A stretch of 8,177 nucleotides of DNA from a virus (IMGVR_UViG_2690316153_000010); one strand, 5' to 3'; shown: positions 3,483 to 7,495, counted from the stretch's first letter. A program made the numbers and translations. The notes: generated by a model from the sequence alone, not told the origin.

Positions 3483-4424
3483 TCACCCCCTGAATCCTGC
3501 CGGGATCTGGCTGTAGTCCACGTTGTCGTAACTGGCTTTGAAGTACGGGTCTTCGCGTTTTTCGGTGTACGTGCTGACGGACGGCGATAAGCGCAGGGAA
3601 AGCTCATCCCATTTTTCCCGCAGCTTCGACGGGCTGAGCACGTTACGGCACCAGAACGGATCGCGACTGACGCGGCTGTACATCTCGCAGATTTGTTTAT
3701 GAGTACGACCATCCTGCACACACATCAGGCGAATTTCGTTTGCCCAGGCTGTCCAGTTCGGTTCTTTGGGACGAACCACCTCGCCGTCACATTCGGCGGC
3801 ATGCTCGTACAGGGCGATGATTTTTTTCCAGAGCCACTGTGCGCAGGTCAAATCATCCTGCGTCCCCCACTGGCGCTTTTTAGGGCTGAATACAACCGCA
3901 TCAGGATGGCGAGTTAAAAAATCCTGTTCAGCCGTCTGCGTGTCCGGTTGCGAAGCGTCCGGACGAGAAGTTTTTTTATCTGACGGATCATGTTTTGATT
4001 TTACTGACGGATCCCCACCAGATTCTGACGGGTGAAAACCCGCTTTTTTGCCAGATTTCGACGCATCAAATTTTGACGGGTCAGATTTTGATGCGTCAGA
4101 TTTTGACGGGTCAGAATCTGACAGTTGAGAAAATGCCGCTGCCTGAAGCTTCGCAACGTTAAGCTGATAAACATTCGACGCATTGCGGTTACCCTGGCGA
4201 CGCGCCCTACGCGTTAACCAGCCTTCTGCTTCCAGCCGTGCGATAGCCGTTCTGACGGTACTCATCCCCGCGCCAATCTGGCGGGCAATGGTTTCAATTG
4301 ATGGCCAGCACACACCTTCGTCATTACTGAAATCAGCCAGGCGGGCCATAATTGCCACGCTGGATAATTTCATGCCTGATGCAGCGCAACCATCCCATAC
4401 ATAGCCGGTTAATTTAGTGCTCAT
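3483..4424 (-). CDS. Replication initiator-like protein: N-terminal HTH/winged-helix domain, low-complexity DPSKS repeat linker, C-terminal tail shared with the KilA-N gene
   Basis: 313-aa ORF. N-terminal segment (GYVWDGCAASGMKLSSVAIMARLADFSNDEGVCWPSIETIARQIGAGMSTVRTAIARLEAEGWL) looks like the HTH domain of phage replication initiators. Internal tandem DNA repeats resemble lambda O-type iterons. Position downstream of cro/cII-like genes fits. Confidence 0.65.
   Translation of the reverse strand: MSTKLTGYVWDGCAASGMKLSSVAIMARLADFSNDEGVCWPSIETIARQIGAGMSTVRTAIARLEAEGWLTRRARRQGNRNASNVYQLNVAKLQAAAFSQLSDSDPSKSDASKSDPSKFDASKSGKKAGFHPSESGGDPSVKSKHDPSDKKTSRPDASQPDTQTAEQDFLTRHPDAVVFSPKKRQWGTQDDLTCAQWLWKKIIALYEHAAECDGEVVRPKEPNWTAWANEIRLMCVQDGRTHKQICEMYSRVSRDPFWCRNVLSPSKLREKWDELSLRLSPSVSTYTEKREDPYFKASYDNVDYSQIPAGFRG
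3975..4127. repeat. Iteron-like 15-bp tandem repeats (consensus AGATTTTGACGGGTC, core TGACGG); candidate origin of replication inside the initiator gene
   Basis: Five contiguous 15-bp units at 4053-4127, plus three degenerate copies at 3975-3989, 3996-4013 and 4021-4035 interspersed with A/T runs. In the coding frame they give the pentapeptide repeat DPSKS/DASKS. Confidence 0.6.
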
Positions 4425-4772: not shown

Positions 4773-5365
4773 GCGTTAGTTTCTCCACAGTCACGACACG
4801 CCACGGCGCCCGGAGCTGCACACTCGCGGGCGTCATTACTTTCTGAAATGCAAAAAATTTTGTAGACCAGTGCTGCATGCTCCTGCAGCTTCGAAATTGA
4901 GAGGTACAGCTCGTCGTTAATTGCTGTCTTCTCATGCGGTTCCACTACACCGTCTTCAATTGCTGAACGAATCTGTTTTGAATAACTGCCGATCTGTTCA
5001 ATGACTTCCAGCAGGCGCTGGTTAATATCGGCGTTGTCCACATCCTCGACGTCAGGAAGAGACACAAAGACGCCATTTGCAGACTGCGCCACAGCGTCAG
5101 CAATGAAGTGAGTTCCACCAGCACGTTGCAAAATCATTGCCCATCCCAGCGGGAAAATCTGATCGCCATCGGCACGAAGGCGGTTAAATAATGCGTTCTC
5201 TGTTACATCCAGCCAGTCAGCTGCTTCAGCGTAACCACCCGGCAACTTTGCGATAGTTTTTCTGACAGCTTTCACGTACCACTCAGGCTGTTTTTCTACT
5301 TTCCAGTGATGCTTACCCACGGTTAGCCTCATCGTTCTGTGGTTTCTGTTAATCGATTTATCCAT
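4769..5365 (-). CDS. CII/YdaT-like regulator (positional cII equivalent)
   Basis: ORF 4769-5434; start uncertain (candidate ATGs at 5365, 5377, 5332), chosen to limit overlap with cro. HTH-like segment [22 protein letters not shown]. Lies directly downstream of the Cro/YdaS-like gene. Family assignment by recollection only. Confidence 0.5.
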
Positions 5366-5558
5366 TAGATTTTTCATAAAGCTCAGGTTTAAATGGCAAC
5401 CGTCCGCAAGTTCTATATGCAGCTTCTGCTGCACGTCCTTTTGGAATTAACTGGCCCGGACGGTTTCGCCACTGATAAACGGCTTCAGTTGTTATGCCGA
5501 AAAAAGCAGCAACTTTCTCAATACTGCCGAAGTAGCTTTCGATATCGTCAGTTGTCAT
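5358..5558 (-). CDS. Cro/YdaS-like HTH regulator
   Basis: 66-aa ORF transcribed divergently from the repressor. GGAGGG RBS 4 nt upstream of the ATG. HTH-like segment SIEKVAAFFGITTEAVYQWRNR. Confidence 0.7.
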   Translation of the reverse strand: MTTDDIESYFGSIEKVAAFFGITTEAVYQWRNRPGQLIPKGRAAEAAYRTCGRLPFKPELYEKSNG

Positions 5559-5655
5559 ACGCCCTCCAAACTAAGTTTTGTTAGATGCTAATTACAAATC
5601 TATCTTTGGTCAATAAAAACTAAGATTACTTAGCGATTAAAGAAATGGTGCTCCT
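5559..5655. promoter_or_regulatory. Divergent immunity promoter/operator region (pR for cro, pRM for the repressor) with CTAA-N6-TTAG operator palindromes
   Basis: Operator-like sites CTAAGTTTTGTTAG (5571-5584) and CTAAGATTACTTAG (5620-5633), plus overlapping TTAGatgCTAA (5581-5591). Minus-strand -35 TTGACC (5608-5613) and, after a 17-bp spacer, -10 TAGCAT (5585-5590) upstream of cro. Confidence 0.5.
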
Positions 5656-6282
5656 ATGGAAACGGTTGGTCAGCGTATAAAAGCTCTGAGAAGAGTTACC
5701 AGAACGTCCCAGAAAGAATTGGGTAAATTTTGTGGAGTAAGCGACGTTGCTGTGGGGTACTGGGAGAAAGACATCAATACCCCTGGCGGGGAGGCACTTT
5801 CGAAATTAGCGAAGTTCTTCAATACGTCAATAGATTACATTCTTTACGGTGCTGAGTTTGAAGGCAAACTCGTCACAAACATGCGCAGAGTTCCTGTAAT
5901 ATCGTGGGTTCAGGCTGGGCAGTTTACTGAGTGCAGGGCAGCAGAAGTGTTTAGTGAAGTGGACAAGTGGGTAGATACATCATTAAAGGTTGGTGATAAC
6001 TCATTTGCATTAGAGGTTAAAGGTGACTCCATGACTAACCCTAATGGCCTCCCAACAATACCAGAAGGCGCAACAGTGATTGTAGATCCAGATGCAGAAC
6101 CTCGTCATGGAAAAATAGTCATCGCTCGACTTGATGGAACAAACGAAGCTACAGTAAAAAAATTAGTCATCGATGGCCCTCAAAAGTTTTTAGTGCCATT
6201 AAATCCTCGGTATCCCAACATCCCTATCAATGGTAATTGCCTTATCATTGGTGTAGTCAAAGGAGTTCAATACGAACTCTAA
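5656..6282 (+). CDS. cI-like prophage repressor: N-terminal XRE-type HTH plus C-terminal S24 (LexA-like) autopeptidase domain
   Basis: 208-aa ORF. HTH at the N-terminus, Ala-Gly cleavage site in WVQAGQF, catalytic Ser in KGDSM and Lys in TVKKL. Divergent from cro. Confidence 0.9.
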   Translation: METVGQRIKALRRVTRTSQKELGKFCGVSDVAVGYWEKDINTPGGEALSKLAKFFNTSIDYILYGAEFEGKLVTNMRRVPVISWVQAGQFTECRAAEVFSEVDKWVDTSLKVGDNSFALEVKGDSMTNPNGLPTIPEGATVIVDPDAEPRHGKIVIARLDGTNEATVKKLVIDGPQKFLVPLNPRYPNIPINGNCLIIGVVKGVQYEL

Positions 6283-6304
6283 GACCTCTCTTCTCTAACT
6301 AAGG

Positions 6305-6337
6305 CACCGAACCAAGAAAAGTTTGGTGTTTTCTCTT
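6305..6337 (+). terminator. Candidate intrinsic terminator downstream of the repressor gene
   Basis: Stem CACCGAAC (6305-6312) pairs with GTTTGGTG (6321-6328) including one G-U, with an 8-nt loop, followed by TTTTCTCTT. Confidence 0.35.
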
Positions 6338-6364
6338 GCCATGATAACTAAGTTAAGTTAGATT
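6336..6364 (+). promoter_or_regulatory. Candidate early-left promoter (pL-like) with overlapping operator (OL-like)
   Basis: -35 TTGCCA (6336-6341), 17-bp spacer, -10 TAGATT (6359-6364). The operator CTAAGTTAAGTTAG (6348-6361) has the same CTAA-N6-TTAG architecture as the cro/cI intergenic sites. Confidence 0.35.
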
Positions 6365-6447
6365 TTATATCAAAGATAACGAACAGGCAGGACGCCCACG
6401 AAGTAGCCGCCTGGGGCATATGAAGTCCAGGATGATTCGTTAGCAAC

Positions 6448-6471
6448 AAAAAAGCGCCCTACAGGACGCTT
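6448..6471 (-). terminator. Intrinsic terminator for the minus-strand gene 6510-7001
   Basis: On the minus strand: AAGCGUCC, loop UGUA, GGGCGCUU (8-bp GC-rich stem with one G-U), then a U-tract (plus-strand A-run 6448-6453). Lies about 40 nt past the stop codon. Confidence 0.55.
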
Positions 6472-6472
6472 A

Positions 6473-6485
6473 GCTCTTTAACAAT
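6473..6485 (+). promoter_or_regulatory. boxA-like antitermination motif (GCTCTTTAACAAT)
   Basis: 13 of 13 match to the core of the E. coli rrn boxA as I recall it (TGCTCTTTAACAATTTA). Plus-strand, downstream of the candidate pL and just after a hairpin. Confidence 0.4.
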
Positions 6486-6501
6486 CTGGATATCCACAAC
6501 A
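6483..6501. repeat. Left arm of a 19-bp inverted repeat flanking the gene 6510-7001
   Basis: AATCTGGATATCCACAACA; its reverse complement TGTTGTGGATATCCAGATT matches 7044-7062 at 18 of 19 positions. Core TGGATATCCA is itself palindromic. Confidence 0.6.
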
Positions 6502-6509
6502 GTAGTAAT

Positions 6510-7001
6510 CTACAGATTGCCGTTAAGTTTTCTGGACAACTCCTCAATGGATGGAGGCGATACGTAATCCGGATTTTTATTCATCAGAAACTTATTTTCA
6601 CAGTGGAGGCACCTGCTTTTATGAAAAAGCTCATCTTCGCTAACCGGGAATGGTTGAAGTATCGATACTATCTTTTGTCCAAAACATTTTGGGCAAAGAT
6701 GCATGGTTATGCTGCCACCGTTCACGATTACCTCCTTCGAGTATACAAAAGTACCCGACTCAAGTTGGTTAAGGATATAGCCTTCCGTCTGAGCCTCAAA
6801 GTTTTCGAATTCTGCAATTTTAGCTTTGAGAGAAGCATTTATTTCTTGATAAGAGCCCACCAGTTCAACGAGAGACACGCATTCGCGCTGAATAGACGCA
6901 AGCTTTGAGTTCAGCTCACCAATAGCCGCATTTACTTCAGCTTGAGTTTTTGCCTCGTTCATTAGTTTTGCAATCTGGGCTGTTTCACGAATAGCCGTCA
7001 T
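6510..7001 (-). CDS. Hypothetical coiled-coil plus zinc-ribbon protein (moron in the rexAB-equivalent position); function unknown
   Basis: ORF 6510-7289 trimmed to the ATG at 7001 (163 aa); an alternative GTG at 7025 has an AAGAG RBS. N-terminal heptad-like helical region, then CPKC and CLHC about 20 residues apart. AT-rich relative to flanks. Own terminator; opposite orientation to neighbours. Confidence 0.6.
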   Translation of the reverse strand: MTAIRETAQIAKLMNEAKTQAEVNAAIGELNSKLASIQRECVSLVELVGSYQEINASLKAKIAEFENFEAQTEGYILNQLESGTFVYSKEVIVNGGSITMHLCPKCFGQKIVSILQPFPVSEDELFHKSRCLHCENKFLMNKNPDYVSPPSIEELSRKLNGNL

Positions 7002-7043
7002 TGCTGCCGTTAATTCAGCGATCACATTGAATACTCTTATTGT

Positions 7044-7062
7044 TGTTGGGGATATCCAGATT
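7044..7062. repeat. Right arm of the 19-bp inverted repeat flanking the gene 6510-7001
   Basis: TGTTGGGGATATCCAGATT, an inverted match to 6483-6501. Sits 19-40 nt upstream of the candidate start codons of the minus-strand gene. Confidence 0.6.
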
Positions 7063-7072
7063 AACCGAATCC

Positions 7073-7093
7073 TTGTTGTTGGGGAATAACCAG
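7073..7093. repeat. Direct-repeat copy of the right inverted-repeat arm
   Basis: TTGTTGTTGGGGAATAACCAG versus TTGTTGTTGGGGATATCCAG at 7040-7059. The 13-bp core TTGTTGTTGGGGA is perfect in both, 33 bp apart. Confidence 0.5.
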
Positions 7094-7312
7094 GTCCACC
7101 TCGCCTGATGTGGCTAAAAGCAGGCACATAACAGCTAAGTATTTTCAACCAGAGAGAATCCTTAGCGTTGTGGTGAATGCGGCTCAGCGCACGCGGGTTA
7201 AGGTTGAGGCTGACAGTCGACCTTCTGTGGATACCCACCCGCCTGGTGTGCAACCTTCGCCAGGCACCGGGAGGCACCCGGCACCACAACTTTATGCTGT
7301 GTGTAGTCCTGG

Positions 7313-7359
7313 CGGTACCAGTTTGTACCCTTGCTTCCGGCTGGTACCGTCCTTTTTTG
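7313..7359 (+). terminator. Terminator-like hairpin in the GC-rich untranslated leader of the early-left operon
   Basis: CGGTACCAG (7313-7321) pairs with CTGGTACCG (7341-7349) around a 19-nt loop, followed by TCCTTTTTT (T-run 7354-7359). The large loop makes this tentative. Confidence 0.3.
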
Positions 7360-7495
7360 CAAAACAGAGAAGAGCATCACCGGACGACGGGCTCATAACC
7401 CAATCCATCCGGGCGGCTGCCACCGCAGGTGTTCTTCTCTGTTTTGTGGAGAAACCAACCGACCTTGCAGGGTCGATATGATGAGGAGCAGCAAA

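Follow-up and report, generated by a model that had tools for sequence, protein, structure and literature searches.

The window analyzed here, the whole stretch of 8,177 nucleotides from the virus IMGVR_UViG_2690316153_000010, corresponds to the immunity and early region of an Escherichia coli prophage of the lambdoid type (SfV / CPS-53-like). Its minus strand carries rusA, dam, a LexA-like gene, perC/yfdN, a replication gene, ymfL, and a cro-like gene, and its plus strand carries the gene for a CI-type repressor and, further on, yfdP and yfdQ. The question raised by this locus is what is encoded by the minus-strand gene located between cI and yfdP. A sequence-only reading had described the product as a coiled-coil protein with a double-CxxC zinc ribbon, had placed it in no well-characterized family, and had proposed it as a candidate defense or exclusion factor. 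The homology data presented below show the gene to be an enterobacterial member of the Rip1 family, which would make its product a prophage-encoded, single-protein sensor and effector of abortive infection; we put the probability of this explanation at roughly 0.78. What is added here is a corrected gene model, the family assignment, and the placement of lambdoid Rip1-family genes in a sieB/sas-type expression cassette, a link that may be new.

Gene model and protein architecture

The features that belong to the gene itself are as follows.

6510 to 7025, minus strand: Rip1-family gene encoding 171 aa; probable GTG start, stop codon located at 6510-6512
7034 to 7039, minus strand: Shine-Dalgarno-like TAAGAG, read from the sequence, 8 nt upstream of the GTG at 7025
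6446 to 6471, minus strand: intrinsic terminator of the gene, AAGCGTCCTGTAGGGCGCTT then TTTTTT, from a terminator scan

The gene had been read as a 163-aa ORF at 6510-7001. The peptide stretches quoted for that ORF and both CxxC pairs were indeed present on the minus strand, but its start and its length did not hold. Specifically, only a poor ribosome-binding site precedes the ATG at 7001, and the corresponding Met (Met9) is not conserved. The most likely translation start is the GTG at 7025, eight codons upstream, which yields a protein of 171 aa. The N-terminal extension gained in this way, MIAELTAA, was kept as MIAELSAAM among 39 homologues, and the GTG start was common to the O157 (O157:H7) allele and the Salmonella allele. 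PGAP also calls the 171-aa product from the GTG (WP_000559922.1), and the region of the Shine-Dalgarno-like sequence is conserved in homologous loci. Because Met9 was not conserved in the 39 homologues, we rejected the idea that the ATG at 7001 serves as an internal start of the kind that produces Esc in P22 and lambda, and there was no sign of an Esc-like internal translation product in the window gene.

The dN/dS values of the ORF relative to two alleles were 0.14 and 0.24. Thus, the ORF is a genuine coding gene under purifying selection rather than a chance reading frame. The claim that the gene has its own terminator was borne out by the terminator scan, which placed an 8-bp stem followed by T6 at 6471-6452 on the minus strand; this terminator was conserved in four homologous loci.

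An AlphaFold2 model built on the 39-homologue alignment (mean pLDDT, 90.6) contained two helices, residues 2 to 24 and 28 to 79, followed by six strands, and this agreed with the earlier description of the N-terminal half as helical. The C-terminal cysteine module was present, as described, but in the model it was a β-rich, six-stranded domain rather than a minimal zinc ribbon. The cysteines form two pairs, C111/C114 and C139/C142 in the 171-aa numbering, which are located 24 residues apart; the pattern of these residues suggests that the domain binds zinc. All four cysteines were invariant in the 39 close homologues and in an alignment that included the HK446 and JBD30 proteins discussed below. 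In a sample of 43 diverse family members, Y83, C111, C114, and C139 were invariant, C142, I122, and L123 were conserved in at least 90%, and a SILQ motif was nearly invariant. The C-terminal tail after the second CxxC pair was clade specific.

The maximum hydrophobic moment (μH) of the N-terminal helix was 0.44 at residues 7 to 24, a value that 603 of 2,000 shuffled sequences also reached, and the hydrophobic-moment analysis of the 171-aa protein yielded no hydrophobic or transmembrane-like segment. Since the moment was modest, was matched by shuffles, and was accompanied by no hydrophobic segment, a capacity to form pores cannot be read from the sequence of this protein.

Relationship to Rip1 of phage HK446

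The 171-aa protein matched phrog_1244 (E = 2.4e-58), and the Rip1 protein of phage HK446 matched the same PHROG (E = 4.6e-52). When the single sequence was compared to PDB sequences with phmmer, it matched chain 9oox_L, "ring interacting pore 1 (Rip1)" (E = 2.7e-7). With a profile of the 39 homologues, the E value for 9oox was 3.4e-20, and the alignment took in both CxxC pairs and covered profile positions 5 to 152 of 170 (148/170) and chain residues 15 to 160 of 164. In BLASTP comparisons, the window protein was 27% identical to HK446 gp37 (E = 4e-11) and 29% identical to Pseudomonas JBD30 gp30 over 153 residues (E = 9e-20), near full length in both cases. When the predicted structure was compared to the PDB with Foldseek, the only significant matches were 9oox_L and 9oox_M, with a probability of 1.00 and target-normalized TM-scores of 0.53 to 0.73. 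The 9oox entry is a cryo-EM structure of HK446 Rip1 bound to the small terminase of phage T6, and it contains 12 Rip1 chains.

Homology searching and structure prediction, two of the checks that the sequence-only reading had proposed, both led to Rip1 (9oox), one by profile and the other by fold. The statement that the protein belonged to no well-characterized family no longer applies, as the Rip1 family has been characterized since February 2026 and its structure is represented by 9oox. The guess that the protein is a defense or exclusion factor is now supported by clear homology to an experimentally characterized anti-phage pore former. Since the family has been characterized since early 2026, the window gene does not represent a novel kind of system. 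When the protein was scanned against Pfam, NCBIfam, and PADLOC, only coiled-coil noise or matches that were far below the cut-offs were returned. The family is absent from PADLOC 2023, which also missed HK446 Rip1 itself; thus, the silence of PADLOC 2023 is uninformative.

In section 5 of a 2026 review (PMC13434031), which cites Patel et al. 2026 (Nature 651:1060), Rip1 is described as a single protein encoded by prophages; it is nontoxic when present alone and is triggered by portal or small-terminase rings. [quoted passage not shown] An 11-mer of the small terminase (TerS) is surrounded by 12 Rip1 monomers; the C-terminal half of Rip1 touches the ring, and the N-terminal amphipathic helices form the pore. 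That section also describes leakage of liposomes, loss of membrane integrity and premature lysis of infected cells, defense phenotypes in both E. coli and Pseudomonas hosts, and homologues that are common across Proteobacteria, chiefly in prophages.

The HK446 and window proteins are both assigned to phrog_1244, are of similar length (164 and 171 aa, respectively), and have N-terminal helices followed by a four-cysteine β domain. They differ at the ends: HK446 Rip1 (gp37) is longer by about 10 residues at the N terminus, and the 20-residue C-terminal tail PDYVSPPSIEELSRKLNGNL of the window protein is missing from it. The two genes also resemble each other in layout, as each is a lone gene with no partner that lies downstream of pL (a candidate pL in the window), in the antisense orientation, behind the same conserved sieB-type leader. 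HK446 rip1 is directly after N and convergent with it, whereas no N gene was found within the window. Other close relatives are the Rip1 homologues of Mu-like prophages of Pseudomonas aeruginosa (for example, JBD30 gp30, D3112 orf25, and the DMS3 homologue). JBD30 gp30 shares the cysteines and the SILQ motif with the window protein and is antisense to the flanking phage genes, but it is located between terminase genes of a transposable phage and not beside an immunity region. HK446 Rip1 and its Pseudomonas relatives are 31 to 32% identical, which makes them about as distant from each other as either is from the window protein. Because defense phenotypes are reported for both, Rip1 function appears to hold at this degree of divergence, and the Rip1 mechanism is likely to be conserved in the window protein.

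By analogy with these characterized members, we infer the trigger, the assembly of the ring and the pore, and the abortive-infection phenotype of the window protein. Specifically, a lysogen would produce the 171-aa protein from its own sieB-type promoter, and the protein would be soluble and harmless. A superinfecting phage in late development would then build ring-shaped oligomers of its small terminase or portal, and the C-terminal four-cysteine β domain would clasp the phage ring. A Rip1 ring of about 12 subunits would assemble, its N-terminal helices would bundle into a pore in the inner membrane, and the permeabilized cell would die or lyse ahead of the completion of progeny.

The immunity region and a sieB/sas-type cassette

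The position of the gene is defined by the repressor gene and by a candidate operator and promoter.

5656 to 6282, plus strand: CI-type repressor (HTH and S24 peptidase) from the ORF list, convergent with the Rip1-family gene
6336 to 6364, plus strand: candidate pL and OL operator, with promoter-like TTGCCA-17-TAGATT and the operator CTAAGTTAAGTTAG at 6348-6361

The counterpart of the CI-type repressor in phage vB_EcoS-569R4 is annotated as "repressor protein cI". An operator-like motif, CTAAG-N4-STTAG, was found in two copies between cI and cro (5571-5584 and 5620-5633) and in a third copy at 6348-6361, giving six matches when both strands were counted versus 0.48 expected. The third copy is located between cI and the Rip1-family gene and overlaps the plus-strand promoter-like site at 6336-6364. 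This site is a candidate OL/pL, and transcription from it would run antisense through the Rip1-family gene. Since the operator-like motif and the promoter-like site separate cI from the gene, the gene is placed downstream of the candidate pL in the antisense orientation. Compared to SfV and the E. coli O103 12009 prophage, the segment from 5346 to 6377, which contains the cro-like gene, cI, and the candidate OR and OL, was swapped as a block, and the flanks were 98 to 99.8% identical. An immunity region with OL/pL at its boundary would be expected to be exchanged as a block in this way.

The gene had been assigned to a position equivalent to that of rex. We instead place it in the sieB-equivalent slot, as it lies beyond the candidate OL/pL and antisense within the pL transcription unit. 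The lambda RexAB system is similar in that it is a membrane-acting, prophage-encoded abortive-infection function next to cI. However, it has two components, is cotranscribed with cI, and lies upstream of OL/pL, whereas the window gene is single, is on the strand opposite to cI, and lies beyond the candidate OL/pL; RexAB and the window protein have no sequence relation. The SieB/Esc/sas locus of P22 and lambda occupies the same slot as the window gene, downstream of pL and convergent with early-left transcription, and sieB shares with the window gene a homologous promoter, the 5' leader DNA, and the sas region. Both SieB and the Rip1 family are products of prophage-expressed abortive-infection genes. 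The SieB protein itself is unrelated, as no SieB family was found among the Pfam, PHROG, and NCBIfam matches and the coding sequences did not align beyond the leader.

The features upstream of the gene and the repeat that brackets it are listed here.

7058 to 7092, minus strand: predicted promoter region homologous to P22 PsieB, with the -10 TAATCT at 7063-7058 and a C-rich -35 region at about 7089-7081
7021 to 7135, plus strand: putative sas-like antisense RNA region, complementary to the start codon, Shine-Dalgarno sequence, 5' UTR, and promoter of the Rip1-family gene
6483 to 6508, no strand assigned: downstream arm of a 26-nt inverted repeat from a repeat search, 22/26 complementary
7037 to 7062, no strand assigned: upstream arm of the inverted repeat, overlapping the -10, the predicted transcription start, and the 5' UTR

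About 110 nt located 5' of the start codon were conserved far better than the protein and could be aligned across the enterobacterial loci, HK446 rip1, lambda sieB, and P22 sieB. This leader block aligned with P22 29638-29764 and lambda 34394-34480, and its core pattern is CCACATCAGGC ... CCCCnAC ... TAAnnT. The promoter region aligned with the sieB promoter and RNA start that are annotated in P22 (NC_002371 29690-29720, start at 29727), which puts the predicted transcription start of the Rip1-family gene at about 7051. The TAA..T and CCCC columns of the promoter block were invariant in eight loci, and the -10 is TAAACT in P22 versus TAATCT in the window. Because a consensus promoter scan yielded no σ70 site upstream of the gene, the promoter assignment is based on the homology to P22 PsieB. 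The proposal that the gene is expressed independently of the lytic operons is in line with its own terminator and with an upstream region homologous to the mapped P22 promoter.

The sas-like region ends in a conserved hairpin, GCCTG-N13-CAGGC, at 7103-7125, and the consensus fold contained four pairs with compensatory changes. The P22 sas antisense RNA, which is described in reviews as an RNA that turns off SieB translation, was recovered by RNA-seq as a 127-nt RNA (PMC13397905 Table 2). Its sequence is exactly complementary to the part of P22 that aligned with the window leader, and it spans the region from the sieB start codon to the terminal hairpin. Ranade and Poteete are said to have reported in 1993 that sas lets P22 escape its own exclusion, and induction of P22 sas mutants is reported to be suicidal. 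A search of the initial 60 nt of the various cargo genes that follow this leader yielded no conserved antisense (sas) promoter, so a sas-like RNA might derive from the pL transcript.

Because the 5' end of the Rip1-family gene overlaps the sas homologue and the gene is antisense to the candidate pL, lytic transcription would be expected to silence it. That is, in an induced prophage or after entry of a phage with the same module, translation of the Rip1-family gene would be turned off and the phage would be spared its own weapon. The arrangement suggests antisense shut-off of the gene as a form of self-protection, and it would solve the self-targeting problem of a sensor that responds to terminase or portal rings. 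The link to sieB/sas suggests how the prophage could avoid killing itself even though it builds such rings.

The 26-nt inverted repeat that brackets the gene has the core TCTGGATATCC, and none of 100 shuffles reached its score. It occupied equivalent positions in four other loci, from Salmonella, Citrobacter, and Klebsiella, where protein identity is just 49 to 75%, and it was absent from the HK446, Edwardsiella, and Arsenophonus loci; in this respect the window gene differs from HK446 rip1. In the upstream arm, the most conserved half includes the -10 and the predicted start site; no clear covariation was seen between the arms. Pairing between the 5' and 3' UTRs was considered as a role for the repeat and rejected, as the most conserved half of the 5' arm is upstream of the predicted start and clear compensatory changes were not found. 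The repeat may serve as a binding site for a protein, form a stem of the RNase III type in the antisense transcript, or be a scar of recombination.

Distribution, alternative readings, and a possible portable slot

The Rip1-family gene was found in 650 of 5,426 complete E. coli genomes; it was almost always full length, and the reading frame was intact in 645. These occurrences corresponded to 684 chromosomal places and none on plasmids, included prophages of O157:H7 and other STEC strains, and were annotated everywhere as "hypothetical protein". An exhaustive profile search recovered 2,766 cluster representatives (50% identity) at an E value of ≤1e-3, and almost all of them were 145 to 180 aa long and matched end to end. 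At each of the 10 loci inspected, the family member was a single ORF that ran against the neighboring lytic operon. The inspected loci included three Citrobacter and Klebsiella prophages, a Salmonella prophage with the homologue after cro, an Edwardsiella prophage with the homologue after N, an Arsenophonus prophage with the homologue between lysis and terminase genes, and JBD30, in which it is located between small-terminase-like and large-terminase genes. In an O157:H7 prophage (E32511), the cassette was found with a RacR-type repressor. Because the immunity block was swapped as a unit and the flanks were kept, the Rip1-family cassette occurs with at least three repressor types.

The assignment to Rip1 gives a testable function to a gene labeled as hypothetical in hundreds of E. 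coli genomes, and a function of this type could shape which phages, therapeutic ones included, grow on the strains that carry it.

In the Edwardsiella prophage, we also noted that two more unannotated genes, encoding 228 and 175 aa, follow the Rip1 homologue (L012 4962-6279, plus strand). They are antisense to the pL operon and adjoin the N-peptide gene, and the group may be a small antisense defense island.

Three other readings of the window gene were weighed against the Rip1 assignment. One is that the protein has kept the Rip1 fold and has lost or changed its defense role. It might, for example, bind the terminase or portal ring of its own phage to time packaging or lysis, or bind another oligomeric target, and form no abortive-infection pore in E. 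coli. The identity to characterized members of only 27 to 29%, the clade-specific C-terminal tail after the second CxxC, the location of one homologue (L014) between lysis and terminase genes, and the unremarkable amphipathicity of the N terminus would all fit such a protein. However, the homology runs end to end with invariant core motifs, and the lone, antisense layout with its own terminator is the same as that of HK446 rip1 and JBD30 gp30. The placement next to immunity regions and the sieB-type lysogen promoter fit a function expressed by the prophage and not a helper of the late genes, and the gene moves among prophages with three repressor types, like accessory defense cargo. We therefore consider a change of role unlikely.

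The other two readings carry far less weight. A coiled coil combined with a C4 finger could indicate a regulator that binds nucleic acid or RNA polymerase, like DksA/TraR, or a restriction-alleviation protein like Lar/Ral, and a loose resemblance to Lar-type ribbons had been pointed out before. The architecture of long helices followed by CxxC-N24-CxxC is superficially alike, and there was a very weak NCBIfam match to RNA polymerase subunit P (E = 0.02; 14.7 bits versus a cut-off of 84). Against this, neither zf-dskA_traR nor any other zinc-ribbon family was matched in Pfam, no such PHROG was matched, and all of the NCBIfam matches were far under their cut-offs. The fold search was significant for Rip1 only, with the cysteines in a six-stranded β domain, and the Lar-type resemblance found no support in Pfam, NCBIfam, or Foldseek; a regulator of this kind is thus very improbable. 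It is harder still to credit that the ORF is a nonfunctional remnant and that the important element is an RNA of the opposite strand, either the pL leader or the sas-like RNA. The presumed pL transcript does overlap the whole gene, and conserved RNA-like elements flank it, but dN/dS values of 0.14 to 0.24, an intact frame in 645 E. coli genomes, residues that are invariant across the family (2,766 cluster representatives and the 43-member sample), and a confident structure prediction all speak for a functional protein.

With the gene read as a Rip1-family member, its cassette can be compared to other loci that contain the same leader or flanks. In phage vB_EcoS-569R4, which carries the same cI, the leader precedes an unrelated 144-aa ORF, and in SfV the filling between the same flanks is different (orf33). 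Therefore, the slot exchanges its cargo. We tentatively propose, at somewhat less than even odds, that lambdoid phages of Enterobacterales share a portable abortive-infection slot, which would consist of about 110 bp of lysogen promoter and 5' UTR and a sas-type RNA on the opposite strand, with unrelated killers behind it. The cargo in this proposal would be SieB in P22 and lambda, Rip1 in HK446, the Rip1-clade gene in the window, and the 144-aa protein in vB_EcoS-569R4. The sas-type RNA, produced upon firing of pL, would act as a general antidote for the resident or a related phage, and the bracketing 26-nt inverted repeat could add RNA processing or cassette mobility in this clade. A reusable expression slot points to a place where more defense genes may be found.

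The 144-aa ORF of vB_EcoS-569R4 (ON470598.1, L004 2909-3343, minus strand) begins with MSGNIYTLYKSHCENVGKYRG... and had no Pfam or PADLOC match; it is a candidate defense cargo.

Several other features of the window were observed. Part of the region from 6400 to 7400 was matched in 2,936 of the 5,426 E. coli genomes. In the first 3,637 nt, the rusA-dam module is duplicated internally with about 97% identity (1-434/1586-2019, 431-1099/2339-3007, and 1099-1333/3403-3637), and no such duplication was seen in the E. coli 12009 prophage, which is collinear in other respects. An ORF at 1179-1643 ends with the final ~50 residues of the replication protein (3483-4424), joined to a different N-terminal part. 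A tRNA scan found none. Within the replication-initiator gene, 4.3 tandem copies of a 15-nt unit (CAGATTTTGACGGGT) are located at 4052-4115 and are probably origin iterons. An Rfam mir-5880 match at 4049-4123 was dismissed as spurious because this 15-nt array occupies the site.

Directly after the sas-like region, on the strand of the candidate pL, there is a structured element of about 220 nt (7137-7360, plus strand) that ends in a GC-rich hairpin followed by T6, and the fold z-score for 7096-7362 was -2.7. The element matched Rfam STnc100 below the threshold (40.3 bits versus a gathering score of 47; E = 3.5e-6). Both STnc100 and PasD are sRNAs of prophages, and they are said to have a common ancestry (bioRxiv 10.64898/2026.05.13.724894).
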